40,000 nucleotides of DNA from Parvibaculales bacterium (GCA_049890195.1 JBMHBY010000006.1:219453-259452); one strand, 5' to 3'. Positions 7,925-25,084 are shown, counted from the first letter of the stretch. The notes: a model not told the origin generated them from the sequence alone. Numbers and translations: made by a program.

Positions 7925-9217
7925 ATGGTCGAGTCCAAAAATCCAGAAACCATCGTTCTTCATTCCGGCTGGCGCAACGACCCGACCACGGGGTCTGTTG
8001 CGGTCCCGATCCATCAGACGACCAGTTACCAGTTCAACGACACAGACCATGCCTCCAACCTGTTTGCCCTGTCGGAGCTCGGCAACATCTACACCCGCCT
8101 GATGAACCCGACGACCGATGTGCTGGAACAGCGTGTCGCGGCCCTTGAGGGCGGGGCAGCGGCACTTGGGGTCGCCTCCGGGCAGACGGCCTCGGCCATG
8201 GCCATCCAGAACATTGCGCGGGCCGGCGACAACATTGTCTCCTCCACCGACCTTTATGGCGGCACCTGGAACCTGTTTTCCAACACGCTGAAAGATATGG
8301 GGATTGAGGTGCGGTTTGTGGACCCCGCCGACCCGGAAGCGTTTGAGAAGGCCACGGATGAGAAGACCCGCGCCTATTACGCCGAAACCCTGCCAAACCC
8401 CAAGCTGCAGGTTTTCCCGATCAAGGCCGTTTCTGAGATCGGCCGCAAGCACGGCATTCCGTTGATTATGGACAATACCGCCGCGCCCGTCATCTGCAAA
8501 CCCTTCGACCACGGTGCCGCCATCATTGTTTACAGCTCAACCAAATATATCGGCGGTCACGGCACCTCCATTGGCGGCCTGATTGTGGACGGCGGCAATT
8601 TCGACTGGGAGGGTGCCGGCCAGCGCCAGCCCATGCTCAACAATCCGGACCCGTCCTATCATGGTGCCGTCTGGACCGAGGCCGTCAAGCCGCTCGGCCC
8701 GATTGCTTATATCCTGAAAGCCCGTACGACCCTGCTGCGCGATCTGGGCGGGGCCATGAGCCCGTTCAACGCCTTCATGTTCCTGCAGGGCATGGAGACC
8801 CTGCCGCTGCGCATGAGGGCGCATTGCGAAAACGCCAATGCCGTTGCCACCTTCCTGAAGGAGCAGCCACAGGTCACATCGGTGATCCATCCGAGCCTGA
8901 TGGATGGCGAATACCGCAAACGGGCCGATGACGTTCTGTCCGGCGGCTATGGCGCCCTGCTCGGCTTTGAGCTGGCCGGCGGTGTTGAAGCCGGCAAAGC
9001 CTTCATCAATGCACTGGAACTGCTGTACCATGTGGCCAATATCGGAGATGCCCGCTCGCTCGCCATCCACCCCGCAAGCACGACCCACAGCCAGCTGAAC
9101 GCCGACGAACAGCTGGCCTCTGGCGTGACACCCGGCTATGTCCGCCTGTCCATCGGCATTGAGCATATTGACGATATTCTGGCTGATATTACACAGGCTT
9201 TGAAAGCGGCCGGCTGA
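7925..9217 (+). CDS. metY: O-acetylhomoserine aminocarboxypropyltransferase/sulfhydrylase
   Basis: 430 aa. HQTTSYQF, NIYTRLMNPT and PLP-Lys SSTKYIGGHG motifs. Confidence 0.9.
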   Translation: MVESKNPETIVLHSGWRNDPTTGSVAVPIHQTTSYQFNDTDHASNLFALSELGNIYTRLMNPTTDVLEQRVAALEGGAAALGVASGQTASAMAIQNIARAGDNIVSSTDLYGGTWNLFSNTLKDMGIEVRFVDPADPEAFEKATDEKTRAYYAETLPNPKLQVFPIKAVSEIGRKHGIPLIMDNTAAPVICKPFDHGAAIIVYSSTKYIGGHGTSIGGLIVDGGNFDWEGAGQRQPMLNNPDPSYHGAVWTEAVKPLGPIAYILKARTTLLRDLGGAMSPFNAFMFLQGMETLPLRMRAHCENANAVATFLKEQPQVTSVIHPSLMDGEYRKRADDVLSGGYGALLGFELAGGVEAGKAFINALELLYHVANIGDARSLAIHPASTTHSQLNADEQLASGVTPGYVRLSIGIEHIDDILADITQALKAAG

Positions 9218-14106: not shown

Positions 14107-14169
14107 GATGCCCCCCTTTTTTAGTTTTCCCCAAACCCGGATATTTCAGTCACCTTTGAAACAGGCCGT

Positions 14170-14329
14170 TTAATCTTTCCGGCACAGGTTGTGATACACG
14201 TTTGCATAATTGGCGGCCTGTTGCGACCAGAAACCCACCTTACTGGCAGGGTGCAACCGACAATTCGTTGTCTGCGGCCCAGGCAGGCGCGGCCAAAACA
14301 AATGCGATGATTGTTGAGGCACGGGTCAT
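14170..14329 (-). pseudogene. Internally deleted, frame-disrupted copy of the small secreted protein at 16264-16518
   Basis: The 5' part reads MTRASTIIAFVLAAPAWAADNELSVAPCQ then a stop. The 3' part, in another frame, reads GFWSQQAANYANVYHNLCRKD then a stop. It matches the nucleotide string cataattggcggcYtgttgcgaccagaaaccc at 16300-16330. Confidence 0.7.
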
Positions 14330-14362
14330 TGACAACCATCCATGTATCTCCCCTTTGAGGGC

Positions 14363-14782
14363 TTAAGACCCTGCATCAAAGCTGCCTTGTCTGCGACCAT
14401 TGAGGTGCCAGAACAAATAGGCGCATACTGCTAAATCATACCCAAAGCAAAGCAATGGATACCAATCGGGCACACCGGCATTGGCAACAAGCCTTTCGTG
14501 ATACAAATCGTAAAACGCGTGAAGTGCCCATAGCCCGATGACAACAAGCATGCCGGCTTTGACGCCGCTGCGAAAACAGATCAGGCCTGCAGCGAAATAA
14601 GGCAAACCATAGATGAACTCCCACATCAAGGCTTGGCTGTCACCCACGCTTAAGGCAAATAGCATGTAAACGGACGGCAGGAACACCATGAATATGGCGA
14701 ACCAGCGGACATCCAAGCGCTGCTTATGGAATATGGCTGCTGTGACAGCAAACAAAACCAGTCCGATGAAGAATTCAACCAT
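14363..14782 (-). CDS. Hypothetical integral membrane protein (about 4 TM)
   Basis: 139-aa ORF, hydrophobic throughout. No family recognised. Confidence 0.55.
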   Translation of the reverse strand: MVEFFIGLVLFAVTAAIFHKQRLDVRWFAIFMVFLPSVYMLFALSVGDSQALMWEFIYGLPYFAAGLICFRSGVKAGMLVVIGLWALHAFYDLYHERLVANAGVPDWYPLLCFGYDLAVCAYLFWHLNGRRQGSFDAGS

Positions 14783-14822
14783 GCGTGCCTCTCATGTGGT
14801 GTGCAGGTGAAGGAGCGATTGG

Positions 14823-14951
14823 TCACGAGAAGAAACGCAAACAGTATTCATAGATAACCATGACAAAAAACGGCCCCAGAAACCCCATTAGAACGGCAAT
14901 CCCGATTGTTAAAATCAAAAGTTTGATACTCTTACGTATTTCTTGGCTCAT
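14823..14951 (-). CDS. Possible small single-TM protein (42 aa), below the ORF-track size cut-off
   Basis: My translation: MSQEIRKSIKLLILTIGIAVLMGFLGPFFVMVIYEYCLRFFS. No clear RBS. Confidence 0.2.
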   Translation of the reverse strand: MSQEIRKSIKLLILTIGIAVLMGFLGPFFVMVIYEYCLRFFS

Positions 14952-15010
14952 GCTTGCTCAATCCATGCACTCTAACCCCCGGCTACTCAACCTGAACTTT
15001 GATGCCTGTT

Positions 15011-15100
15011 CCTCTTTGAAAGCCTATCAGCCCGAGTGCTTTGGTGTAAACCTGCGTTCAGGGGTGTTCACGATGCACGATAAACATGGAGTTTCAAGGT
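15011..15100 (+). repeat. Copy A of the promoter plus 5' DUF5681-like gene repeat (decayed, truncated)
   Basis: Aligns by eye with 24549-24650: cctctttgaaagcctatcag...ttcacgATGcacgataaaca. The -10 has decayed to TTTGGT and the reading frame stops after 9 codons. Confidence 0.7.
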
Positions 15101-15108
15101 AAGCATCA

Positions 15109-16116
15109 TTATTTTGCTGTGCACTTATCGCCTAGCAACATTTCCTTGAATGAGGTCAAACTTTCATCATCCAAATCGCGGCCTGCCCACCAAACCGCAT
15201 GCTCTTTTATGCCGCGCCGTTCATCAATGACCAGCCCCCACATGGGCGCAATCTGATTTGGGACCATGGAGTAACGCACATCCGTGACAAGATTTTTATC
15301 ACCATCAAACCCCAAATAATCCTGAGAAAACCAACGAAACCTCTCAATGTCTTTCCTCTGCTGACTGTTGCTATCCAAATCCGGTAAGTGATATTGATCG
15401 TCAAATATTTTAATGCTTTCGCCGGGGCACCAAGCGGGCGTGCGCCCAGCGCGAATGGCATCAACATAAAAACGATCTCCATGCTGATAAATGGACTTCC
15501 ACAGAATTAGGTTACCAAAAGAAGGCTTGAGCGTCATCCGCTCCGCACTGTGCCCTCTCGATTGGGCCAGTTCGAGCGCAGATGACAATGCCCTCTCATA
15601 CTGAACAAGCCCTAACGCCAGATAAGAGACAATCCACCCAACCGCAAAAAAACTAAATCGCCGCTTATTTGTTTTGACTGCCGCGCCTAAAAGAATGAGG
15701 GCGGGAATGGTAAGGAGCGGGTCAACAATGGATATATTATTCCAAGTTATGCGCTCATTGGAGAAGGGCCAAAGGAGAAGCGTGCCGTATGACGTGCAGG
15801 CATCAAGCAAACCATGGGTCGCATAGCCCAGAAAACTTGCCACATAGGTCGTTTTAAAACTCAAGGATTTCCTGACCAGTGGAAAAACAAGTGCAGAGAC
15901 GATTAACGCCCCAAAGGGAATAAAGAAGAGGGCATGAGTGAATTGTCTGTGGTACTCAAGAAACAAAATGGGGTCAGTCGATGACTGAATTAAAACGTCT
16001 AAATCGGGCGCCAACCCGGCGAGAAAGCCGACAAGACTTATCTTTGCAATATTGGTTTTGTTTGCCGCTGATTGCGCAAAAGCTGCGCCTACTGTTCCTT
16101 GAGATATGGGGTCCAT
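15109..16116 (-). CDS. Membrane-bound metal-dependent hydrolase, DUF457 (YdjM/YfhP-like) family
   Basis: 335 aa. N-terminal MDPISQGTVGAA, PDLDVLI and HRQFTHALFF motifs. Multi-TM N-terminal half. Confidence 0.7.
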   Translation of the reverse strand: MDPISQGTVGAAFAQSAANKTNIAKISLVGFLAGLAPDLDVLIQSSTDPILFLEYHRQFTHALFFIPFGALIVSALVFPLVRKSLSFKTTYVASFLGYATHGLLDACTSYGTLLLWPFSNERITWNNISIVDPLLTIPALILLGAAVKTNKRRFSFFAVGWIVSYLALGLVQYERALSSALELAQSRGHSAERMTLKPSFGNLILWKSIYQHGDRFYVDAIRAGRTPAWCPGESIKIFDDQYHLPDLDSNSQQRKDIERFRWFSQDYLGFDGDKNLVTDVRYSMVPNQIAPMWGLVIDERRGIKEHAVWWAGRDLDDESLTSFKEMLLGDKCTAK

Positions 16117-16163
16117 GTCAACTCAACAAATTCATTTTGATATCTCATCACAAAAAAACACCC

Positions 16164-16262
16164 ACACCACCCTTTGATAGCCTAACAGCAGAAGTGCAAT
16201 CATATACACCTGCGTCCAGGAGCATTCACGATGCGTGATAAACAAGGCAAGTTTGTGAAAGC
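16164..16262 (+). repeat. Copy B of the promoter plus 5' DUF5681-like gene repeat (truncated after about 10 codons)
   Basis: caccctttgatagcctaacag...ttcacgATGcgtgataaacaaggcaagtttgtgaaag. It ends directly against the stop of the minus-strand gene at 16264. Confidence 0.75.
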
Positions 16263-16263
16263 T

Positions 16264-16518
16264 CTAATCGTCTTTGCATAAGCTGTCATAGACGGTTGCA
16301 TAATTGGCGGCTTGTTGCGACCAGAAACCCGCTTTGGCGGCAGCCTTCTCAGCATCCGCCCCGCCTTGCCGGACAATCACCCATTGTTTTTCAGCGGATA
16401 CCAGGGCGCTTTGAATGCCATTAAAAATGTTCTTGCAGGCCTCGTCTGACAGCTTGTCGTCCGCAGCCCAGGCAGGTGAGGAAAACAGCAACACGATGAT
16501 GGTATAGATACGGGTCAT
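16264..16518 (-). CDS. Small secreted protein (84 aa), member of the shared-signal-peptide family
   Basis: Signal peptide MTRIYTIIVLLFSSPAWA followed by AADD. Two Cys in the mature part. The start overlaps the stop of the upstream 53-aa ORF (ATGA). Confidence 0.7.
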   Translation of the reverse strand: MTRIYTIIVLLFSSPAWAADDKLSDEACKNIFNGIQSALVSAEKQWVIVRQGGADAEKAAAKAGFWSQQAANYATVYDSLCKDD

Positions 16519-16676
16519 TTCTTGTCCTTTTGCTTTTTTCTTTCTGCTGCTGCAACCTCGCCCCTCAACGACCTTGCGCTCCCCTCATAAGGCTTGCTGT
16601 CGTCTCCCTGCATGAGTTCCAGAAGCCAATCCTTAGGCCGCTCATGCACCTTTTTCTTTTCATCCTCTTTGGTCAT
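16515..16676 (-). CDS. Conserved 53-aa Lys/Glu-rich protein, not in the ORF track (copy 1)
   Basis: My translation: MTKEDEKKKVHERPKDWLLELMQGDDSKPYEGSARSLRGEVAAAERKKQKDKK. RBS AGGAGCC lies upstream. A paralog at 23518-23679 has the substitution pattern expected of a protein-coding gene. Confidence 0.6.
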   Translation of the reverse strand: MTKEDEKKKVHERPKDWLLELMQGDDSKPYEGSARSLRGEVAAAERKKQKDKK

Positions 16677-16737
16677 AAAAGGCTCCTATTGCAGGCGTCG
16701 TAAACAAAAGCATGATAATGGTCAGTATGCGAGCCAT
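16660..16737 (-). pseudogene. Orphan signal-peptide remnant (MARILTIIMLLFTTPAIGA...) without a mature domain
   Basis: 25-codon ORF whose N-terminus matches the shared signal peptide. It runs into the conserved leader of the 53-aa gene. Confidence 0.45.
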
Positions 16738-16761
16738 TGATTTTTCCTAAACAAATAATCT

Positions 16762-16850
16762 CCACCACCCTTTGAAAGCCTAACAGTCAGAGTGCCATGA
16801 TGTAAACCTGAGTCCAGAGCGTTTACGATGCGCAATAGATAGGAAATATG
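16762..16850 (+). repeat. Copy C of the promoter plus 5' DUF5681-like gene repeat (decayed; ATG CGC AAT AGA TAG)
   Basis: caccctttgaaagcctaacagtcagagtgccatgatgtaaacctgagtccagagcgtttacgATG. Residual similarity (ggcaatcc) extends to about +45. Confidence 0.7.
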
Positions 16851-16911
16851 AAATTCTCTCCGGCAATCCACTTAAATTCAATGGTACCGGTCACATAAGA
16901 GGAATTGAAAG

Positions 16912-16963
16912 AAATGGCGCACCGGGGAAGATTCGAACTCCTGACCCCTTGATTCGTAGTCAA
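16912..16963 (-). repeat. Displaced 3' fragment of tRNA-Arg(ACG): att direct repeat (distal junction)
   Basis: 49 nt (16915-16963) are identical to 25008-25056 except for one position (T vs C). Three further flanking A residues are also shared. Confidence 0.9.
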
Positions 16964-17100
16964 AAGGCCCACCTCTTTTTAATTCCATGTATCCATAAGA
17001 AATACATTCAAATATGCGTAAAATTCATATTAATACAGTAGTTTATATACTTTTCTATTCCATTAACTTGCAAAGCAATGTTAGTGTAATTTCAGCCGAT

Positions 17101-17131
17101 TGCTGAGATTTTGCTGAGATTGTGCTGAGAC
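17101..17131 (+). promoter_or_regulatory. Three direct TGCTGAGA(T/C) repeats at 11-bp phasing: candidate integrase arm-type sites (int-proximal end)
   Basis: TGCTGAGAT at 17101 and 17112, TGCTGAGAC at 17123. The same motif pair occurs at 24924-24943. Confidence 0.5.
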
Positions 17132-17142
17132 AGAGTTAATAC

Positions 17143-17170
17143 CCCCCCACCTCAAATTTTGAATGGGGGG
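17143..17170. promoter_or_regulatory. GC-clamped hairpin (CCCCCCA...TGGGGGG with inner TCAAA-T-TTTGA) about 20 nt upstream of int
   Basis: Read directly. Function unknown; it could be an insulating terminator or a protein-binding site. Confidence 0.3.
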
Positions 17171-17190
17171 CAGTTTAGGCAAGTAAGGAA

Positions 17191-18330
17191 ATGAGTAAGT
17201 TAACCAATAGATTAGTAGTTGCTGCCAAGCCGCCCGAGCACAAACGGTACGAAATGCTCTGGGACAGCGAAGTAAAAGGGTTCTGCTGCCGGGTCAGCAA
17301 AAGCGGGACAAAAACTTTCCTTGTTGAAAGACGCATCAAGGCGTCTGGCAAAATCAAACAACTCACTATTGGCAGAGTTCCGGAGTGGAGTGCAGAGCAG
17401 GCCCGTGAGAGGGCCAAAGAGATACTGCGTGACTTTGACCAACCAGACTATCTTGAAAAAACGCTACAAAAACAACATGCATTGTCTCTCGAACAGGCTG
17501 TTGAAAGATATATTGCCTCGCACCTGTTTGATAAAAGCGCACAACACAGAAATAACACCGCTTCATATCTCAGAAGATTTATTGTCCCACAACTTAAGGA
17601 CATCAAGATAGAAAAGCTCAAAAGACAGCAGCTCATGCCGATTTTCGATAAAGCCAAGAGAGATATATCCTCCCAAAGCGCGAATGCGCTATGGCGTGCA
17701 ACTTCCGGCTTCTTGAGCTGGTGCCTCAGACAGGAACTGATAGAAAATCATCCACTTCAGGGCATCAAACCGCCTGCCAAGAATATCTCCAGGAATAGAG
17801 TCTTAACACTGGATGAACTGCAGGCAATCTGGAGCGCTTCTGAGCACCTCTCACCACTATGGAAAGGGTTTATCAGACTATTGATATTAACCGGTCAACG
17901 GCGTGAAGAGGTTGCAGGCATGTGCAAGGCTGAAATCAGTGATAACTGGTGGCGTATTCCGGCCCACAGAACCAAGAATGAGAGAGAGAACTTGGTGTTC
18001 CTGACACAGCTGGCAGTCAGTCAAATGCCAAAGAGTGAACACAACCTCATATTCACGACAACTGGCACAACCTCAGTCTCCGGCTTTAGCAAGCTGAAAA
18101 AGCGCTTGGACAGACTCTCAGGCGTTGAAGGGTGGCGTATGCATGATATCCGCAGGAGTTTTGTGACGCACCTGAATGAAATGCAACAGCCAGCACATAT
18201 CGTTGAGGCTTGTGTGAACCATATATCCGGTACGAGAGCAGGCGTTGCAGGGGTCTATAACCGCGCAGAATACAGAGAGCAACGGCAAGAGGCATTCACC
18301 CAATGGTCTGAGGTGTTTGAAAAACTATGA
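17191..18330 (+). CDS. int: Tyrosine recombinase/integrase, P4-like with N-terminal arm-binding (DUF4102-like) domain
   Basis: 379 aa. N-terminus KPPEHKRYEMLWDSEVKGFCCRVSKSGTKTFLV. Catalytic motifs LTGQRREEV, HDIRRSF and GVYNRAEY. Confidence 0.93.
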   Translation: MSKLTNRLVVAAKPPEHKRYEMLWDSEVKGFCCRVSKSGTKTFLVERRIKASGKIKQLTIGRVPEWSAEQARERAKEILRDFDQPDYLEKTLQKQHALSLEQAVERYIASHLFDKSAQHRNNTASYLRRFIVPQLKDIKIEKLKRQQLMPIFDKAKRDISSQSANALWRATSGFLSWCLRQELIENHPLQGIKPPAKNISRNRVLTLDELQAIWSASEHLSPLWKGFIRLLILTGQRREEVAGMCKAEISDNWWRIPAHRTKNERENLVFLTQLAVSQMPKSEHNLIFTTTGTTSVSGFSKLKKRLDRLSGVEGWRMHDIRRSFVTHLNEMQQPAHIVEACVNHISGTRAGVAGVYNRAEYREQRQEAFTQWSEVFEKL

Positions 18331-18716
18331 GTAAAATCACACGTGAGCAACTAGACATACAAGATGCTTTTGAAGCTGGCGATTTGAAGCCATTTTTTGA
18401 TGAGTACGTTCTAGCCAATAAAAAACCGCCCAAGAGAATGATTGAGAGATTACAGTGGGTTATGACAGAGAGGTCTTTAACACCTGTTTTGAAACAAAAA
18501 AGGAGCGGACCAGCAAAGAAATCCGATATACCACTCTCACTGAAAATTGAATTTTTCGAACGTAAAGCTGAGCTACAGAAGAATACCAGCGCCACTGAAG
18601 CAAAGCATCAAGCGGCCAAAGAGTTTGGAATAAATACCAGAAAAGCTGACAAATGGCTTGCAGATGCTCAATACATTCACAATAGGCTTTTACAGGACGG
18701 AAAAGAATTTAGCTAA
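18327..18716 (+). CDS. Hypothetical protein with possible C-terminal HTH, translationally coupled to int
   Basis: ATGA overlap with the int stop. The C-terminal AAKEFGINTRKADKWL resembles an HTH. No family recognised. Confidence 0.55.
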   Translation: MSKITREQLDIQDAFEAGDLKPFFDEYVLANKKPPKRMIERLQWVMTERSLTPVLKQKRSGPAKKSDIPLSLKIEFFERKAELQKNTSATEAKHQAAKEFGINTRKADKWLADAQYIHNRLLQDGKEFS

Positions 18717-18722
18717 TTATGT

Positions 18723-19097
18723 TTAATTACAGTCCATGCCACCAAAAATATTTGGCACACAGCTAATGCCGTTGCTGTAATCCTGTCCACCGAAGATGTT
18801 TTTTCTTGAACTCACGCCGTTGCTGTAATCCTGTCCACCAAAGATGTTGCTTCTTGAACTCACGCCATTGCTGTAATCCTGTCCGCCGAAGATGTTACTT
18901 CTTGAACTCACGCCATTACTGTAATCCTGTCCACCGAAGATGTTACTTCTGGAGCTCACGCCATTGTTGAAGTCGCCTCCACCAAAAATATTAGGGTTGT
19001 AACCAACTTGAGCATTAGCTGTGACGGGGATATTAAAAGCAATAATGCAGGCAGAGATTGATAGGCCAATCATTAAGTTTTTTGAAAAGTTCATCAT
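18723..19097 (-). CDS. Secreted Gly/Asn/Ser-rich protein with six 16-aa NIFGG(Q)DYSNGVSSRS repeats
   Basis: Signal peptide ending ANAQ. Four near-identical 48-bp units plus degenerate units at either end. Two Cys at the C-terminus. Confidence 0.7.
   Translation of the reverse strand: MMNFSKNLMIGLSISACIIAFNIPVTANAQVGYNPNIFGGGDFNNGVSSRSNIFGGQDYSNGVSSRSNIFGGQDYSNGVSSRSNIFGGQDYSNGVSSRKNIFGGQDYSNGISCVPNIFGGMDCN
18767..18958. repeat. Four tandem 48-bp near-identical units, in frame within the 18723-19097 CDS
   Basis: Units at 18767, 18815, 18863 and 18911 differ at only a few positions. Degenerate units flank them. Confidence 0.9.
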
Positions 19098-19259
19098 TAC
19101 ACTCCTTCAATTGTGCATATCTATGACTATAGGCTACTTAATTGCCTTGTCAAAACCAGCAAAATCACACCGCAAATATTTACCCCTAATTAGAGTCGGT
19201 GCCAGTAAACCGTAGTGAATCCAATATGACCTCATTGAAACTTTTCAAAGAGGCAAGTC

Positions 19260-19493
19260 ATGGAAAACTATCTAGACCGAAGAGACGCGGCACTTCATCT
19301 CACTAATGCTGGCATCAGCATGTCAAAATCAACCCTTGCAAGAATGGCTATGAAAGCCGAGGGACCCAAATACGTAATTATCCGCCATAAGGCATACTAC
19401 AAACCTGAATGGCTGGAAGAGTGGTTGAACAAATACCTACCCTCATCCTCTGCCCTCGAGCATATGGCACGTAAAGGGGTTGAAGATGTCTAA
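19260..19493 (+). CDS. Small HTH DNA-binding protein (AlpA/excisionase-like)
   Basis: 77 aa. RRDAALHLTNAGISMSKSTLARMA resembles the HTH_17/AlpA type. It sits upstream of the replication gene, as in P4-like elements. Confidence 0.55.
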   Translation: MENYLDRRDAALHLTNAGISMSKSTLARMAMKAEGPKYVIIRHKAYYKPEWLEEWLNKYLPSSSALEHMARKGVEDV

Positions 19494-19728
19494 AAAGCCT
19501 ACTCTAGTAGCTCTTTCTGAAGTAACTGACCTTACACCTTTACAAGCTATACGTGCGAACTGCATCGAGTGTTCTGGCAACTCTAGTAGAGATGCAGATA
19601 CCTGCCACCTAACAAATTGCAAGCTTCACTATTACCGGTTCGGGACTAATCCGAACCGGAAGGGGATTGGCGGACAAAAGACACATCGTCGCCAAACTGA
19701 GGTGCTTAACGATGCCCAGAAGAAATAA
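19480..19728 (+). CDS. Small Cys4 (CxxC-x10-C-x4-C) zinc-finger-like phage/island protein
   Basis: IRANCIECSGNSSRDADTCHLTNCKLHYYRFG. Overlaps both neighbouring genes. Confidence 0.55.
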   Translation: MKMSKKPTLVALSEVTDLTPLQAIRANCIECSGNSSRDADTCHLTNCKLHYYRFGTNPNRKGIGGQKTHRRQTEVLNDAQKK

Positions 19729-21556
19729 TGAGCTCGTTCAGCTAGCTCTGGAAATATCAAAAGATATTCCTGTATTTCCTTGCGCACGCAATAAGAAGCC
19801 TGTTTGCAAAGGTGGTTTCTATGACGCCACTCAGGATGCCGACAAAATCAAACAGCTTTTTGCAAATAAGGATGCTGCCCTAATCGGTATGCCGACGGGT
19901 ACAGCCTCAGGTATCTCGGTCATCGACATAGATGTAACCAATGGGAAACAGGGTGAAAATTGGAAGCTGGAAAACGCTGAAAAACTCGGAGTTACTTGTA
20001 TTGCTTCAACCCCATCTGGCGGATACCACTACTACTATCAACATCTCGATGGATTGCGAAACACGCAAGGCATTGATGGGTGCGTAGACATACGCGGTGA
20101 GGGCGGATATGTCATTCACGCAGCTTCACCAGGGTATGGCTGGCTCAAAAAAGATGAGGCACTGGCTCCGTTTCCGAAGCATTTCAGCACTACAAATCAA
20201 ATAATAGAGCACCCCAAAGGCAATCCGCCCACACTTAGCTTGGAACAAATGACCAAGCTACGAGACGATTTCAATGGAAATAACTGGAATAAAATTGTTT
20301 CAAAGATATGTTACAGCGCTTTTGAGCAAGGCTGGAGCAATCACCAATTCCGAGAGTTTATTGCACCAATTTGCAACTTAGGGGTAACAGACCCTGACCT
20401 CGACCCTATTGTTGACAGTGTTCGTAGGACACGGGGAACATTTGATAGCGGCGAAAAAACGCCACCCCCCTTTCCCGGCAAAAAACATCTACCACTGACC
20501 CCGATTGGCATTATCCAGTCTGAAAAGTTGAAGCCCAGAGAGCTGATACACGGGCTTGATTACATCGCTGGCACCATTTCTTTAACTGTTGCCGCTGGAG
20601 GTGTCGGCAAATCTATGGTTGTTATCCAGGAGGCCTGTGCAATAGCAAATAATGGCAACAAAGTAATGTTGCTGATGCTTGAGGACGATTTGAACGAAGT
20701 TAAGAGGCGAGTAAAAGCCTGTCTCACTCATCATGGCTATGACGAAGCTAAAATCGCTGAAAATCTTATCGTATTGAGCGAGGAAACGAGACTTACAATC
20801 GCCAGAGTTGAACATAACCATCCCGTGGCGGTTGATGGTCACTTAATCCGAGAGGCAGCAATGCAATTCGGTGCACGAGTGATTATAGCGGACCCTTTTG
20901 TTCAAACACATGAAATGAACGAGAACGACAATGGACAAATGAACTTTGTCGCTGACCAATTCCGTTCCATTGCAAAAGAACAGAATATCGCTGTTATGTT
21001 GGTCCACCACACGCGCAAAGGGTCAGAATACGGCACTCGTGGAGAGAATGCCCGGGGTGCATCGGCACTGAAAGATGCGGCAAGAAGCGTAAGAGAGCTT
21101 CGGCAACTGGGTGAAACTGAGGCAAGCGAGCTTAATATCGACGCTAGTTTTGCACATGAAATTATTTGCTTAGACCATACGAAAGCCAATTATACCAAGC
21201 GTGCAGAACTACGATATTTGAGAAAAATACCTGTTTTACTATCTGAGGCTTCGCAAAAGAGTCAAATCTCAGCCACAGTCGAGGCATATATTCCCGAAAC
21301 CTACGAGGACCTCGTCACAGACGAACATCGCAATGAAATCAGGCAAATGATTATCAAAGCGCGCAAAGATGAAAAGCCTTACGTCAAGAACCCGCGCAAT
21401 GGCTCGCGTAATATCTACAAAGAGGCACAAGCGAAGATGGGTTTGCCACTAGTTGCCATCAAACGCATGGTTTCAGAAATGTATGAAGGCGGTGTTTTGG
21501 AAAAGCGCAAGTATGGTCGCAGCGAAGCGGCGCTGGCAGTTGTGGGCATTGAGTAA
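19712..21556 (+). CDS. Replication protein: bifunctional primase-polymerase (Prim-Pol) N-terminal domain fused to a RepA-like AAA ATPase
   Basis: VIDIDV (DxD), GGYHYYY and DIRGEGGYVI motifs. Walker A AAGGVGKS and LVHHTRKG. I chose the ATG at 19712 (MPRRNNELV). Confidence 0.85.
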   Translation: MPRRNNELVQLALEISKDIPVFPCARNKKPVCKGGFYDATQDADKIKQLFANKDAALIGMPTGTASGISVIDIDVTNGKQGENWKLENAEKLGVTCIASTPSGGYHYYYQHLDGLRNTQGIDGCVDIRGEGGYVIHAASPGYGWLKKDEALAPFPKHFSTTNQIIEHPKGNPPTLSLEQMTKLRDDFNGNNWNKIVSKICYSAFEQGWSNHQFREFIAPICNLGVTDPDLDPIVDSVRRTRGTFDSGEKTPPPFPGKKHLPLTPIGIIQSEKLKPRELIHGLDYIAGTISLTVAAGGVGKSMVVIQEACAIANNGNKVMLLMLEDDLNEVKRRVKACLTHHGYDEAKIAENLIVLSEETRLTIARVEHNHPVAVDGHLIREAAMQFGARVIIADPFVQTHEMNENDNGQMNFVADQFRSIAKEQNIAVMLVHHTRKGSEYGTRGENARGASALKDAARSVRELRQLGETEASELNIDASFAHEIICLDHTKANYTKRAELRYLRKIPVLLSEASQKSQISATVEAYIPETYEDLVTDEHRNEIRQMIIKARKDEKPYVKNPRNGSRNIYKEAQAKMGLPLVAIKRMVSEMYEGGVLEKRKYGRSEAALAVVGIE

Positions 21557-21558
21557 CT

Positions 21559-21601
21559 ACAACAACAATAAAAACGCCTATAACAATGTTATTGTTGTTG
21601 T
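21559..21601. promoter_or_regulatory. 13-bp perfect-stem hairpin (ACAACAACAATAA-N17-TTATTGTTGTTGT) followed by a CAACAA-rich tract: terminator or candidate origin
   Basis: Read directly. It lies immediately 3' of the replication gene. A second 8-bp inverted repeat, AACGCCTA/TAGGCGTT, spans the same region. Confidence 0.35.
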
Positions 21602-21993
21602 TACCAACAACCAACAATCAACATCGTCTTTAGGCGTTGGCAATTGCTGAGGTCTTTGCTTGCTTATTGTCAATAATTAACAAGCCTCTGAAAGTTCATA
21701 ATCTTGGAGGACTGTGATTATCAAGACGATTGATGTAACGACCATTGTTTAGAAACATTTTCTTTGCCGAGAAATCTATCTCGAGGTTCTTGCTTTTCAC
21801 CCTTTTACCAGCGGCTTCGTACATGAAAAGCGGCTCCCAACAACCAATTACCCAAACATAAGCTTCATCGCCCTCGCAGGCTTAGCGGTGATTGCAGCCA
21901 AATACGGTGATTAAGAATTTTTTGCCTCACTAAGATAAGTGGGGTCAGGCAAAGGTGGTCTGCCGTCGTCTCCAATAGCGGCGTCAGACTTTC

Positions 21994-22179
21994 CTACTTC
22001 AGGACAAGGTGAATGAACAGCAATGCAAAAATTGAATTTATGCTGGCGGCAATAAAAACCTGCCTGCCCCCAGTGGCCTCTTCTTGCAATCCGAAAAGCC
22101 ACACAAGCAAAAAAGCCGTGCCATACCACGCAGCGAAACAGAGTATTAACGTTCCCCACCAAGTTAAATACCAAGACAT
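21994..22179 (-). CDS. Possible small 2-TM membrane protein (61 aa)
   Basis: MSWYLTWWGTLILCFAAWYGTAFLLVWLFG... preceded by GGAGAaacgt. This call conflicts with other ORF models in the same region. Confidence 0.35.
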   Translation of the reverse strand: MSWYLTWWGTLILCFAAWYGTAFLLVWLFGLQEEATGGRQVFIAASINSIFALLFIHLVLK

Positions 22180-22190
22180 ACGTTTCTCCA

Positions 22191-22355
22191 ATGACCAGAT
22201 ATGTATATAAAATACTAGGCGAATGGCCGCCAGAATACAAAATAAGCATCGCTGATGAAATCAACAAGCTAGGCAATGACGGCTGGGAACTGAACTGCGC
22301 TGCTTTTATTTCAAACGCATGCGCACGACTTCGATGGACGCGGTTGATGAGGTGA
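22191..22355 (+). CDS. Possible DUF4177-like small protein (54 aa), not in the ORF track
   Basis: My translation: MTRYVYKILGEWPPEYKISIADEINKLGNDGWELNCAAFISN... The YxYK and LGxxGWEL pattern is typical of DUF4177. No obvious RBS. Confidence 0.4.
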   Translation: MTRYVYKILGEWPPEYKISIADEINKLGNDGWELNCAAFISNACARLRWTRLMR

Positions 22356-22371
22356 TTGATTAACACTACTT

Positions 22372-22740
22372 CTAATTCAAATCAGAGCAGGTAAGGTTTT
22401 TCTGATAGCCAACTGACCCAGACAGATAATGAATAGTTATGGTTAAAGGACCAATCTGCGGCACCACCATAATGTGCTGAAGGTCACTCGCAGAATACAT
22501 TTTGACGTTATCTATATTCTGAATTTCTTGCCATTCGGAAGCTTTCTTGGCACCTCTAACTTTTACTGAGGCCTTATTTCCTAGAAACCTTACTGTATGA
22601 GACTTTAGATTTGTTGAAATTATTTCCCCAGTCTCAAATTTGGCCAAACGTTCTTCGGCGTCACAAATTAGCGTCTTATCGCCAAACGCCACCACAGGCG
22701 TCATAAACAGAAGCGTGAGGATGGTTAAGAAACGGGTCAT
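22372..22740 (-). CDS. Small secreted protein (122 aa), member of the shared-signal-peptide family
   Basis: The internal ATG at 22740 gives MTRFLTILTLLFMTPVVAFG. The mature part is unrelated to the other family members. Confidence 0.6.
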   Translation of the reverse strand: MTRFLTILTLLFMTPVVAFGDKTLICDAEERLAKFETGEIISTNLKSHTVRFLGNKASVKVRGAKKASEWQEIQNIDNVKMYSASDLQHIMVVPQIGPLTITIHYLSGSVGYQKNLTCSDLN

Positions 22741-22781
22741 TTTATGGACAATCGTGAGGTGAAATACAACTAGTAATCTAG

Positions 22782-23240
22782 TCATTGACTTAACACGGTT
22801 GAGCAATTTCTTTGTTGATACTCATTTTCAGCAAAAGCTTTCCAGTAGTTATTATCTTTGTCCAAATCCCGCACTGGGTCAAAACTTCTCTCAAAAATTT
22901 GTCCAAGCTGAAAATCGATTGGCTGCTTAGACAAAACTCCCCACCAGTAAAATGGTATTTTGTTAACTTGCTCTTGAGATAATTTATTCTCAAGCAACGC
23001 TTTGAGAAATACTCTCCCTTGCTCAATTGCCTTACTCATTGGCTCACCCAAAGCTTCTTTGTTTTCACCTGCATAATTAGCAAGATGAATGCACTCAAAT
23101 ATTACATGGATATTTCTGGGCGTTTCTAGGCTTATTTGCTGACTGTTTTTTGCACTTCTATCAGACGCAAAGCTAAAGATAATTATAAATAACAGACCGA
23201 AAACCGCAGTCATTGACGTAACAATTATCTTACTTGACAT
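22782..23240 (-). CDS. Hypothetical membrane-anchored or secreted protein (152 aa)
   Basis: ATG at 23240 preceded by GGAGGAG. N-terminal hydrophobic segment AVFGLLFIIIFSFA. No family recognised. Confidence 0.6.
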   Translation of the reverse strand: MSSKIIVTSMTAVFGLLFIIIFSFASDRSAKNSQQISLETPRNIHVIFECIHLANYAGENKEALGEPMSKAIEQGRVFLKALLENKLSQEQVNKIPFYWWGVLSKQPIDFQLGQIFERSFDPVRDLDKDNNYWKAFAENEYQQRNCSTVLSQ

Positions 23241-23521
23241 GCCCACCACTCCTCCGTTTCCTCCAAAGGTGCATTATTGTCGTTAGATTTTGCTTTCTTT
23301 AGCTGAATAATTTCTCTGTCAAACCTACAAACTTTTGAAACTACGGAATAAGCATGATTTCCGAGTATATCGGCAATAGAACCACTTGGACATGATTGAA
23401 CAGCTTTCTCAACCTCCAGGTAGCTCATCGAAGTATTTATAACAATAAGACAGGGGGTTTTCTGTGTAGCGAATGAAGGCGAAGCAAACAGAAGCGCAAT
23501 AATGGTGACTATGCGTGTCAT
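23225..23521 (-). CDS. Small secreted Cys-containing protein (98 aa), member of the shared-signal-peptide family
   Basis: Signal peptide MTRIVTIIALLFASPSFA. The start overlaps the stop of the 53-aa ORF (ATGA). Confidence 0.7.
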   Translation of the reverse strand: MTRIVTIIALLFASPSFATQKTPCLIVINTSMSYLEVEKAVQSCPSGSIADILGNHAYSVVSKVCRFDREIIQLKKAKSNDNNAPLEETEEWWACQVR

Positions 23522-23679
23522 CTCTTATCCTTTTTCTTTTGTCTTTCAGCCGCTGCAACTTCGCCCCTTAACGACCTTGCACTACCCTCATAGGGCTTGG
23601 TGTTGTCCCATTTCATAAGCTCCATTGCCCAATCTTTAGGCCGCTCGTGTGGCTTTTTCTTTTCATCCTCTTCGGTCAT
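23518..23679 (-). CDS. Conserved 53-aa Lys/Glu-rich protein, not in the ORF track (copy 2)
   Basis: My translation: MTEEDEKKKPHERPKDWAMELMKWDNTKPYEGSARSLRGEVAAAERQKKKDKR. Same length, RBS and stop-start overlap as copy 1. Confidence 0.6.
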   Translation of the reverse strand: MTEEDEKKKPHERPKDWAMELMKWDNTKPYEGSARSLRGEVAAAERQKKKDKR

Positions 23680-23706
23680 AAAAGGCTCCTATTGCAGGCG
23701 ACGTAA

Positions 23707-24522
23707 TCAGTAGCATGTTGTAGTCCCATACCCTCCGCCATATGAGGATGTGCAGGTAGTTGGCCTTAAATTCATAATTGTATTTGATAAGTTCGACATA
23801 CCCTGCATTTGTAGTTGCCGCGCTTGAGCCGCTTGTTGACGTTGATTAGCTTCTATTTCTGCGCCTGCTTTACCGAGCTTATTATTAACTTCATTCATTG
23901 AGATGGCATATTCGCCAAATGTTGTTTTACCCTGTGAGAGCTTGACCAGCGCTGCTAATTCCTCGGTAAGAGCAACATTCAAAACTCTTTGCGCTGAAGG
24001 CTCGAAATTCGTAATTCGAAGCGCCTCACATTCTTCAACTGCAGCCCCATAGATAGAAATTGCTTTTGACTCACGAGCAGATGGTTTATTTGCGTTCCCC
24101 AATTGGGCAAACGAGAATGTTTCACCTTCGGGAAAGAGTTTGACACTTAGTTTGTCTAAAAATTCTTCGCCAAAACCAGAAATAATTTGTTTTCTTGATT
24201 TGCTGTAACACTCTGCAGTTTGCTGAATGTCGAACTTTGGCACACACTTGAATTCAACACTAGACATCCCAGCACCTACTGCATTCAAGGCGCGCTCACG
24301 CTGATTTTGCTTAACAGCTATTTTTCCTAACTTCTCACAGTGAGCTTTTGCCTTTTCAATTGCTAAATTGCTAGCTGCGGATATACCTCCAGCTGCTGGT
24401 GCGGCTTTAGCTGAAACACTAAATGTGCCCTCACTTGAGACAATAACGTCACTCGTTGTAGTGCATGCAGCAATTAATGGCGCAATTAAAATAAGTGCAC
24501 CGAGACTGTGATTAAATTTCAT
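23707..24522 (-). CDS. Lipoprotein of unknown function (271 aa from the chosen start)
   Basis: MKFNHSLGALILIAPLIAAC contains a lipobox. Coiled-coil-like Q/A-rich region near the C-terminus. C-terminal CTSSYGGGYGTTTCY. Confidence 0.65.
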   Translation of the reverse strand: MKFNHSLGALILIAPLIAACTTTSDVIVSSEGTFSVSAKAAPAAGGISAASNLAIEKAKAHCEKLGKIAVKQNQRERALNAVGAGMSSVEFKCVPKFDIQQTAECYSKSRKQIISGFGEEFLDKLSVKLFPEGETFSFAQLGNANKPSARESKAISIYGAAVEECEALRITNFEPSAQRVLNVALTEELAALVKLSQGKTTFGEYAISMNEVNNKLGKAGAEIEANQRQQAAQARQLQMQGMSNLSNTIMNLRPTTCTSSYGGGYGTTTCY

Positions 24523-24555
24523 GACTAACTCTTTCAAATACATAGTTACTACCCT

Positions 24556-24585
24556 TTGAAAGCCTAACAGCCGAAGTGCTATAAT
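24556..24585 (+). promoter_or_regulatory. Sigma70-type promoter TTGAAA-N18-TATAAT of the DUF5681-like gene, within intact repeat copy D (24549-24650)
   Basis: -35 at 24556-24561 and -10 at 24580-24585. RBS CAGGAG precedes the ATG at 24613. Only this copy keeps a consensus -10. Confidence 0.6.
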
Positions 24586-24612
24586 GTAAACCTGAGTTCA
24601 GGAGCATTCACG

Positions 24613-24903
24613 ATGCGCGATAAACAAGGCAAATTTGTTAAGGGTCATTCTGGCAATCCGGCGGGGCGTCCAAAAGATGCTTATAAGGTCGCAGAGCTGG
24701 CAAGAACATACACCACAGAGGCCATTGAGACCCTGGCTGAGATAATGCGCCATGCTAAAGATGAACGTGTAAGGGGAACAGCGGCGCAAGCACTGCTGGA
24801 TAGAGGCTGGGGCAAGCCTAAAGTGGAGATAGTCAGTGAGAATTCAGACTATGTTGCCGCCCTGCAAGCCGTCCGCCATCTTATACAACAAAAAGGCAAT
24901 TAA
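24613..24903 (+). CDS. Phage-associated small protein with N-terminal GNPAGRPK motif (DUF5681-like)
   Basis: 96 aa: MRDKQGKFVKGHSGNPAGRPKDAYK... This motif is typical of DUF5681-type phage proteins. It is the last gene before the tRNA junction. Confidence 0.55.
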   Translation: MRDKQGKFVKGHSGNPAGRPKDAYKVAELARTYTTEAIETLAEIMRHAKDERVRGTAAQALLDRGWGKPKVEIVSENSDYVAALQAVRHLIQQKGN

Positions 24904-24923
24904 CTGGCTGAAACAGACTTTAG

Positions 24924-24943
24924 TGCTGAGATAGCGCTGAGAT
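24924..24943 (+). promoter_or_regulatory. Two direct (T/C)GCTGAGAT repeats at 11-bp phasing: candidate integrase arm-type sites (tRNA-proximal end)
   Basis: TGCTGAGAT at 24924 and CGCTGAGAT at 24935. Same orientation as the repeats at 17101-17131. Confidence 0.5.
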
Positions 24944-25007
24944 TATAAGCAACGTCAATGCATCATCGCGTTGAAAAACAATAACTAACTGAAATATAAT
25001 GAGAAAA

Positions 25008-25084
25008 TGGCGCACCGGGGAAGATTCGAACTCCCGACCCCTTGATTCGTAGTCAAGTACTCTATCCAGCTGAGCTACCGGTGC
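25008..25084 (-). tRNA. tRNA-Arg (anticodon ACG), 77 nt with encoded CCA
   Basis: Reverse complement: GCACCGGTAGCTCAGCTGGATAGAGTACTTGACTACGAATCAAGGGGTCGGGAGTTCGAATCTTCCCCGGTGCGCCA. It folds as a cloverleaf with anticodon loop CU-ACG-AA. Confidence 0.92.

Follow-up and report, generated by a model that had tools for sequence, protein, structure and literature searches.

The window analysed here, a 40,000-nucleotide (nt) stretch of DNA from a Parvibaculales bacterium (GCA_049890195.1 JBMHBY010000006.1:219453-259452), holds an intact 8.1-kb island (16912-25084) in a tRNA-Arg gene, and to the left of this island lie three truncated copies, relics A, B and C, of a short promoter block belonging to the island's own core. 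The island is edged by a 52-nt repeat of the tRNA-Arg (16912-16963 and 25005-25056). It has the hallmarks of such elements, namely a tyrosine integrase beside a tRNA gene whose 3′ end is directly repeated at the far boundary, and a replication module of its own (Prim-Pol plus AAA_25). The last gene of the island encodes a DUF5681 protein (Pfam PF18932, 2e-8) and is preceded by the intact copy of the block, block D. The block copies, the DUF5681 gene and the genes against which relics A and B end are as follows.

15011-15094, plus strand: relic A, with the promoter block, 5′ untranslated region (UTR) and about 6-8 DUF5681 codons (nhmmer profile positions 4-84)
15109-16116, minus strand: YdjM-family membrane protein, 335 amino acids (aa), between A and B, 89% identical to the copy in genome G020
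16166-16261, plus strand: relic B, with the block and 10 codons (MRDKQGKFVK); an orthologous copy, B′, is present in G020
16264-16518, minus strand: 84-aa secreted cargo protein, whose stop codon abuts relic B
16764-16872, plus strand: relic C, with the block and about 47 nt of coding sequence, a 5-nt deletion, and GGCAATCC retained
24549-24612, plus strand: intact block D, with a TTGAAA-N18-TGcTATAAT promoter, an anti-Shine-Dalgarno/Shine-Dalgarno (SD) hairpin (CCTGAGTTCAGG) and a ribosome-binding site (RBS)
24613-24903, plus strand: intact DUF5681 gene, 96 aa, last gene of the island, pointing at the tRNA

The presence of four copies in one orientation, all on the plus strand, had been proposed from the sequence alone (the sequence-only reading), and a formal alignment, a repeat finder working independently (families D3 and D4) and a 19-mer search agree on them at the same coordinates. 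The mean column identity of the alignment is 72%, and the conserved stretch begins with CCCTTTGAAAGCC, takes in the -10 region, a CCTG-N4-CAGG hairpin and the RBS, and reaches into the first codons. The 19-mer, taken from the block and searched with up to 3 mismatches, matches exactly these four copies, against 0 expected from shuffled sequences. No further copy is present in the whole 1.8-Mb genome, so the block is not a genome-wide motif. A generic regulatory motif, the case which the sequence-only reading had itself raised as fatal, is therefore ruled out, the block being confined to this locus in its own genome. Likewise, only block D carries the consensus -10 hexamer TATAAT, and the corresponding hexamers are TTTGGT in A, (A)ATCAT(A) in B and CATGAT in C, as previously read.

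The breaks do not fall at one codon, as had been thought. Counted from the ATG of the DUF5681 gene, as all positions with a sign below, homology ends at about +19 to +25 in A (15089-15094, with a weak possible continuation to about +44), at +31 in B (16261) and at +47 in C, past the 5-nt deletion. The breaks thus spread over ~28 nt (codons 7-16) and make up one zone, close to the earlier estimate that homology fades 30-47 nt into the coding sequence. Relic B ends 2 nt short of the stop codon (16264-16266) of the convergent 84-aa gene and relic A 12-20 nt short of the YdjM stop codon (15109-15111), which bears out the proximity of both to the 3′ end of an opposite-strand cargo gene. To the right of relic C there is a spacer of ~40 nt, followed by a tRNA-Arg 3′ fragment.

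Break positions and junction partners

The block is found in 11 of 57 genomes of the family. In small tRNA-integrating islands (integrase, Prim-Pol/helicase and terS-like DUF5681) it forms the opening 60-110 bp of the conserved core, and it lies directly against variable cargo. Related islands sit at tRNA-Arg, tRNA-Val and tRNA-Thr genes, and in all of them DUF5681 is the final gene and faces the tRNA. A search of other genomes, which the sequence-only reading had called for, shows that relics recur in five genera and in marine metagenomes. The genomes were searched with a profile covering -65 to +60 and tied to no pattern, and it gave breaks at -13, +17, +18, about +22, +27, +31, +38, +42, +47 and +62, together with full-length pseudogenes and one fragment consisting of a 3′ end only. 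The metagenomes were scanned with a 20-base degenerate pattern over -4 to +16, which yielded 72 marine contigs; in 14 of these there are two or three copies, all oriented the same way. A 15-base block pattern run against the genome contigs gave chance matches only.

By comparison with full copies, 27 distinct truncation junctions were called in the metagenomes, with a median of +38 (offsets 16, 19, 21, 22, 27, 27, 28, 28, 30, 31, 33, 35, 38, 38, 40, 40, 48, 50, 51, 58, 62, 64, 65, 86, 88, 138 and 156). The junctions at or before +65 number 23 of 27, against 17.5% expected under uniform breaks (P=3e-14). With the relics of other genomes added, the clustering suspected from the window is therefore beyond chance, and it takes the form of a zone with a long tail rather than one site. 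There are at least 20 different break positions, ranging from -13 to +156. Neither a motif or shared sequence to the right of the breaks nor a target duplication was found among the junctions compared, marks for which the sequence-only reading had suggested a search. In the full gene, third-codon diversity is near zero in codons 1-8 and 11-13 and higher downstream, which is partly ascertainment, as the pattern fixes -4 to +16.

The stop codon of a convergent open reading frame (ORF), or in one case a tRNA gene, lies within 41 nt in 14 of the 23 tight junctions (up to +65) and in 0 of the 4 loose ones (Fisher P=0.04), and several convergent ORFs end inside the relic and take their stop codon from it. 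Fragments of a tRNA or attachment (att) site are the partners of relic C, of the relic in L013, of copy C′ in G020 and of the relic in G021 (G021rel); in three of these (C, L013 and G021rel), the relic abuts the fragment and DUF5681 alone is deleted. Both sides of the seams are thus at or near functional limits, which fits repeated deletion in a compact genome.

We also note junctions of another kind. In L242 (minus strand, ATG at 2140), L248 (minus strand, ATG at 120) and L251 (minus strand, ATG at 8226), the promoter, RBS and first 8-11 codons of the relic are in frame with a forward ORF of more than 100 aa, and one of the fused ORFs has a signal-peptide-like start. In these three contigs the block appears to be reused as the expression head of new genes.

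Cargo starts and exchange at the block

The left edge of the block is sharp. The common metagenome clade has it at -40/-41, between CA and AATCAGCGTAAACT, and the clade of the window at -64 (ACCCTTTGAAA). A minus-strand ORF starts nearby in 44 of 50 distinct left contexts, at a median distance of 19.5 nt from the edge, and the leader between the edge and the cargo start is usually the same (TGTATCAAGGAGATAnAAATG), with an SD sequence. As unrelated ORFs are joined at their start codons to one leader and one block, there is no space for a promoter of their own outside the block. At such distances, any cargo promoter would have to lie within the block and overlap the 5′ UTR and first codons of DUF5681. 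A candidate, inferred from the sequence, is present in block D.

24562-24591, minus strand: candidate leftward (cargo) promoter in block D, TTTACA-N18-TGnTAGGCT

In the clade of the window, the candidate TTTACA-N18-TGnTAGGCT occupies -27 to -22 and -51 to -46 on the minus strand. The candidate of the other clade is TTGCCT-N18-TACGCT, at -13 to -8 and -36 to -31 on the same strand, and its upstream region would reach about +16. By a hand count on the sequences, 13 of 14 window-type copies retain the TAnnnT of the candidate. All 6 full window-type copies have a perfect TATAAT as the rightward -10, against 1 of 8 relics. Sequence up to at least +16 is retained in 9 of 10 relics found with the profile. 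The exception, cut at -13, belongs to the clade of the window, in which the candidate lies further to the left; the placing of the two candidates would account both for this retention and for the exception. Selection may be the cause of this lower bound on the breaks.

Comparison of related relics points to exchange at the same place. Seven relic families with a common junction were aligned. In six of them, identity among the members is 90-100% from about -40 into the cargo on the right, and the sequences beyond this point on the left are unrelated; in the one remaining family (junction at +30), the left neighbour is also common to the members. Conversely, one left context occurs with several right partners. 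Since one junction is found beside unrelated left neighbours, cargo has been reassorted at the block. The promoter alleles tell the same, as relic A has one allele, its orthologue A′ another, and G021rel a mixture of both. Between B and B′, identity is about 62% on the left side of -14 and 94% on its right side, and the pairs A/A′ and B/B′, from two species, are mosaics of two promoter alleles. Recombination inside the block is therefore frequent. Repeated homologous recombination among tandem elements had been one proposal of the sequence-only reading, and its first part, recombination in the repeat, is supported by six of seven families and by the mosaic alleles; its homologous nature is indistinguishable from site-specific exchange, as the blocks are too alike for crossovers to be placed or the two to be separated.

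Two relatives show how such arrays stand at other tRNA genes. G020, of the same genus, carries three copies in an array at tRNA-Val, namely A′ and B′, which are orthologous to A and B, and C′; a DUF3604 gene adjoins this array, and we therefore regard the array as core-less. Between the window and the G020 array, identity is 89-91% in the cassette genes and 77-80% in the core flanks. After C′ comes an 11-nt piece that matches the tRNA-Val core exactly. In G021 (L022 14038-14195, G021:C10), the relic is cut at -13 and fused to a 17-nt piece of the tRNA-Val 3′ end, beyond which come a 25-nt island-end spacer, a 70-nt tRNA-Val piece and an intact island with integrase. This locus seems to hold nested att remnants in which the middle island has been deleted almost wholly.

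The other clade presents a further arrangement (L212 914-2290, L250 1593-3667 and L037 10001-11344), in which block and DUF5681 are followed by a forward 140-aa gene without a Pfam match and by a second block with DUF5681. The second copy is often frameshifted, and one frameshift allele recurs across several metagenomes. A Chi-like sequence, GCTGGCGG, in the gene of this clade was set aside, as it is absent in the clade of the window.

The cargo array and the intact island

Relics A, B and C lie within a 2.8-kb array of minus-strand genes without an integrase or replication gene, to the left of the intact island. Besides the two genes listed above, the array contains the following.

14121-14782, minus strand: left end of the array, with a 72-aa paralogue of the 84-aa gene (match 14171-14249, family D6) and a 139-aa ORF
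14823-14951, minus strand: 42-aa membrane ORF, first gene to the left of relic A
16515-16676, minus strand: 53-aa cargo ORF, the nearest intact gene on the left side of relic C; it matches 23518-23679 of the intact island (D2) at 80% identity

The stop codon of the 72-aa gene is 14 nt from the start codon of DoxX, and intergenic gaps in the window are mostly 15-80 nt. The ends of the array resemble each other, with CCCCCCTT (the DoxX RBS, 14111-14118) on the left and CCACTT (16868-16875) on the right, so that CC(C/A)CTT flanks 2.75 kb at both ends. Partial tRNA fragments act as separators after relic C (16912-16963) and in G021. Neither A nor B is followed by one, and most metagenome arrays lack them too, the relics there adjoining the stop codons of cargo genes. 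At the orthologous position, G020 has an empty site in which the flanks are joined by about 90 nt; hence all of 14121-25004 is inserted DNA.

Five minus-strand gene starts in the window (14294-14331, 16483-16520, 16702-16739, 22705-22742 and 23486-23523) have signal-peptide DNA in common, 66-79% identical, and the MTRILTII start of these genes adjoins the block in metagenome islands. This DNA could be a second recombination anchor for the exchange of cargo.

The remaining features of the intact island are listed here.

16912-16963, strand not assigned: tRNA-Arg 3′ fragment, 52 nt, the distal att repeat, 98% identical to 25005-25056
17191-18330, plus strand: P4-type tyrosine integrase, 379 aa, with Arm-DNA-bind_3
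19667-21556, plus strand: Prim-Pol and AAA_25 replication protein
21911-24522, minus strand: cargo operon of the intact island, starting with a lipoprotein gene 27 nt to the left of block D
25008-25084, minus strand: tRNA-Arg(ACG), the integration target

The integrase is the only recombinase found among the island genes screened (4 by Pfam and 5 by PHROGs). The resemblance of DUF5681 to small terminases is weak: phrog_2538, annotated terS, matches at 3e-7, the top PHROG hit is of unknown function, and small-terminase structures in the PDB match at E 0.05-0.5 (6w7t, E 0.05).

Repeats of GCTGAGAT lie near both ends of the tRNA-Arg island (17101-17131 and 24924-24943), and tRNA-Val islands (L022 and L024) have GTCACAA repeats in the matching place; both are likely to be arm sites of the integrase, varying with att specificity. 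A single GGTCACA occurs at 16897-16903, past relic C. At the island end (24971-25000) there is a promoter-like TTGAAA-N18-TATAAT (11 of 12 matches) directed outward into the tRNA-Arg 3′ end, antisense to it. A 124-aa minus-strand ORF of the island contains, at 18715-19002, a tandem repeat of five 48-nt units with 65-91% identity to the reference copy.

Origin of the relics

The observed anatomy, break distribution, junction partners, reassortment and cargo start positions can be brought together in one explanation, to which we give a probability of roughly 0.55. Tandem or fused islands would have lost their redundant core, and the divergent promoter block would have been kept because it still drives the older cargo. 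The block would be a compact divergent promoter region, serving DUF5681 to the right and, to the left, cargo without a promoter of its own. When islands integrate successively at a tRNA, or fuse, the redundant parts (the rest of DUF5681, att, int and rep) would be lost by deletion. The older cargo would still need its promoter, and as the upstream half of this promoter would overlap the 5′ UTR and first codons of DUF5681, deletions would halt just inside the gene on this side. On the other side the limit would be set by the next cargo gene's stop codon or by the tRNA, and the rightward -10 would afterwards be free to decay. Since the blocks would be the only homology between otherwise unrelated cargo, recombination in them would also reassort the units.

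Several observations weigh against this explanation. A consensus promoter scan finds rightward promoters and no minus-strand promoter in any copy, and the candidate -10 hexamers TAGGCT and TACGCT match TATAAT at only 3 of 6 positions. Relic A is about 65-72% identical between the window and G020, against 89-95% for the adjacent gene, and this fast divergence indicates weak constraint. The tRNA gene lies upstream on the cargo strand, so that read-through could feed the cargo without a promoter in the block. The block can also be lost, as one seam in G020 (L021 14187-14267, G020:C5) holds only the 3′ end of DUF5681 (residues 67-93 and the stop codon) between two operon cargo genes. Nine of the 23 tight junctions have no convergent stop codon or tRNA nearby, and at least 3 of these 9 are the in-frame forward fusions to the relic start codon in L242, L248 and L251. 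Finally, the array lies to the left of ~40 nt that resemble the native DoxX-tRNA spacer of G020 (CCCCCTTAAGCAATGGTAATGG...), a position not expected from simple tandem integration. Either a deletion between short repeats removed the array from G020, or the array entered the spacer, and not the tRNA, by another route.

The relics may instead be neutral scars, kept uniform by gene conversion or homologous recombination with full copies while the deletion bias of a streamlined genome removes the rest. The mosaic promoter alleles among A/A′, B/B′ and G021rel and the fast divergence of relic A agree with this, and near-zero third-codon diversity at the start of the gene, partly ascertainment as said, would follow from homogenisation confined to the part that full copies share with relics. 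Neutral scars give no reason, however, for a lower bound near +16 in 9 of 10 pattern-free relics, and they leave unexplained the cargo ORFs placed 18-20 nt from the block behind a common leader and the conservation of the right half of B at 94%, against about 62% in the left half. We consider them a rather improbable origin.

A more speculative possibility, which we hold doubtful, is that the block is a homology-built cassette platform, in which a bidirectional promoter of ~60 bp would double as a recombination site and promoterless units with a truncated block would pop out and re-insert. Integron arrays offer an analogy, and an analogy only, in that the arrays here also have putatively promoterless ORFs in one direction behind a common platform, a repeat of 60-110 bp after each ORF, stop codons at or in the repeat, and reassortment. 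Unlike integrons, the island has no IntI-type integrase, the sole recombinase found being the 379-aa P4-type enzyme. The repeats consist of a truncated promoter and gene start, and they lack a conserved second end, paired core sites and a folded bottom strand. An attC reading of GCCTAAC (GTTAGGC on the minus strand, compare GTTRRRY) was rejected on the lack of a partner core site, the varying right ends, the non-IntI integrase and folding equal to that of shuffled sequences. Phage morons and linker exchange are similar in that short conserved sequences flank unrelated genes and serve as crossovers, and a unit brings or uses a local promoter. Unlike phage linkers, the linker here is no dedicated sequence and would be the relic of the element's own core gene, made by deletion of the core.

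The sequence-only reading had also put forward a preferred recombination or insertion site just inside the gene. In such a case, a recombinase or nuclease acting in the first ~20 codons of DUF5681 would join new cargo and cluster the breaks directly. The strong clustering, the very sharp left edge of the block in dozens of contexts, the cassette-like behaviour of the units, the 11-nt tRNA-Val core piece at C′ and the direct fusion of G021rel to an att fragment would all suit such a hotspot. It is at odds with the scatter of the breaks over at least 20 positions and with the lack of a motif or target duplication at them. The near-identity of the block in Arg-, Val- and Thr-specific islands makes the integrase an unlikely agent, the screened island genes offer no second recombinase, and folding of the block is, on both strands, no better than that of shuffled controls (z -1.1 to +0.4). 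The preferred site is thus not borne out, and a hotspot is in our view unlikely. A secondary att site of the island integrase was tried as a general cause and is ruled out by the Arg, Val and Thr att sites and the unrelated junction sequences.

Pac sites of pac-type phages are often in or near terS. A reading of the block as the home of the packaging (pac) site for a terS-like protein, with the relics as retained pseudo-pac sites or as products of terminase cuts, draws on this and on the similarity of DUF5681 to small terminases (phrog_2538 and 6w7t), and it is highly improbable, as this assignment is weak, there is no helper phage, a terminase-cut chromosome is normally lethal and unlikely to pass on deletions, and the tight fit to stop codons would be unexplained.

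With loss of redundant core from tandem islands as the preferred explanation, the phenomenon is ordinary in kind, namely decay of tandem islands at a tRNA hotspot; its regularity across genera and metagenomes is unreported. According to the available part of the account of tycheposons (bioRxiv 10.1101/2020.12.28.424599, Hackl et al.), these elements undergo successive integrations at one tRNA and leave degenerate remnants, fragmented integrases and partial tRNAs. They resemble the island of the window in the tyrosine integrase, the tRNA 3′ end as target, the partial tRNA repeats and the primase module, and they resemble this locus in that newer elements push older ones inwards and leave degenerate remnants and cargo in streamlined marine genomes. 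That part of the account contains no regular promoter/5′-gene relic of 60-110 bp at each seam, no common cargo leader and no reassortment at a block. The host of tycheposons is Prochlorococcus, whereas the hosts here are PS1-clade alphaproteobacteria. The minimal phage satellites known as PICI/PICMI (PMC10803314), as far as the accessible text of the paper goes, are alike in their size of ~8 kb, int, replication protein, possible small-terminase-like gene and cargo at one end. PICMIs integrate beside fis, in contrast to the tRNA used by the island here, and such relic arrays are not mentioned in the same text.

In streamlined marine bacteria, a large share of the variable genes is found in islands beside tRNA genes, and the build-up of cargo there is poorly understood. 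The relics are readable seams in this build-up, at which the cargo of successive islands was kept and the mobility core discarded. One short block probably supplies expression for whichever ORF adjoins it, and the same block is the point at which units are exchanged between islands with different tRNA targets. As a signature, the block with fewer than about 20 codons allows past integrations to be counted and cargo units to be tracked in metagenomes, and the relics provide a testable promoter model. If the block were indeed a cassette platform, small marine satellites would assemble and exchange their cargo arrays in a regular and repeatable way.

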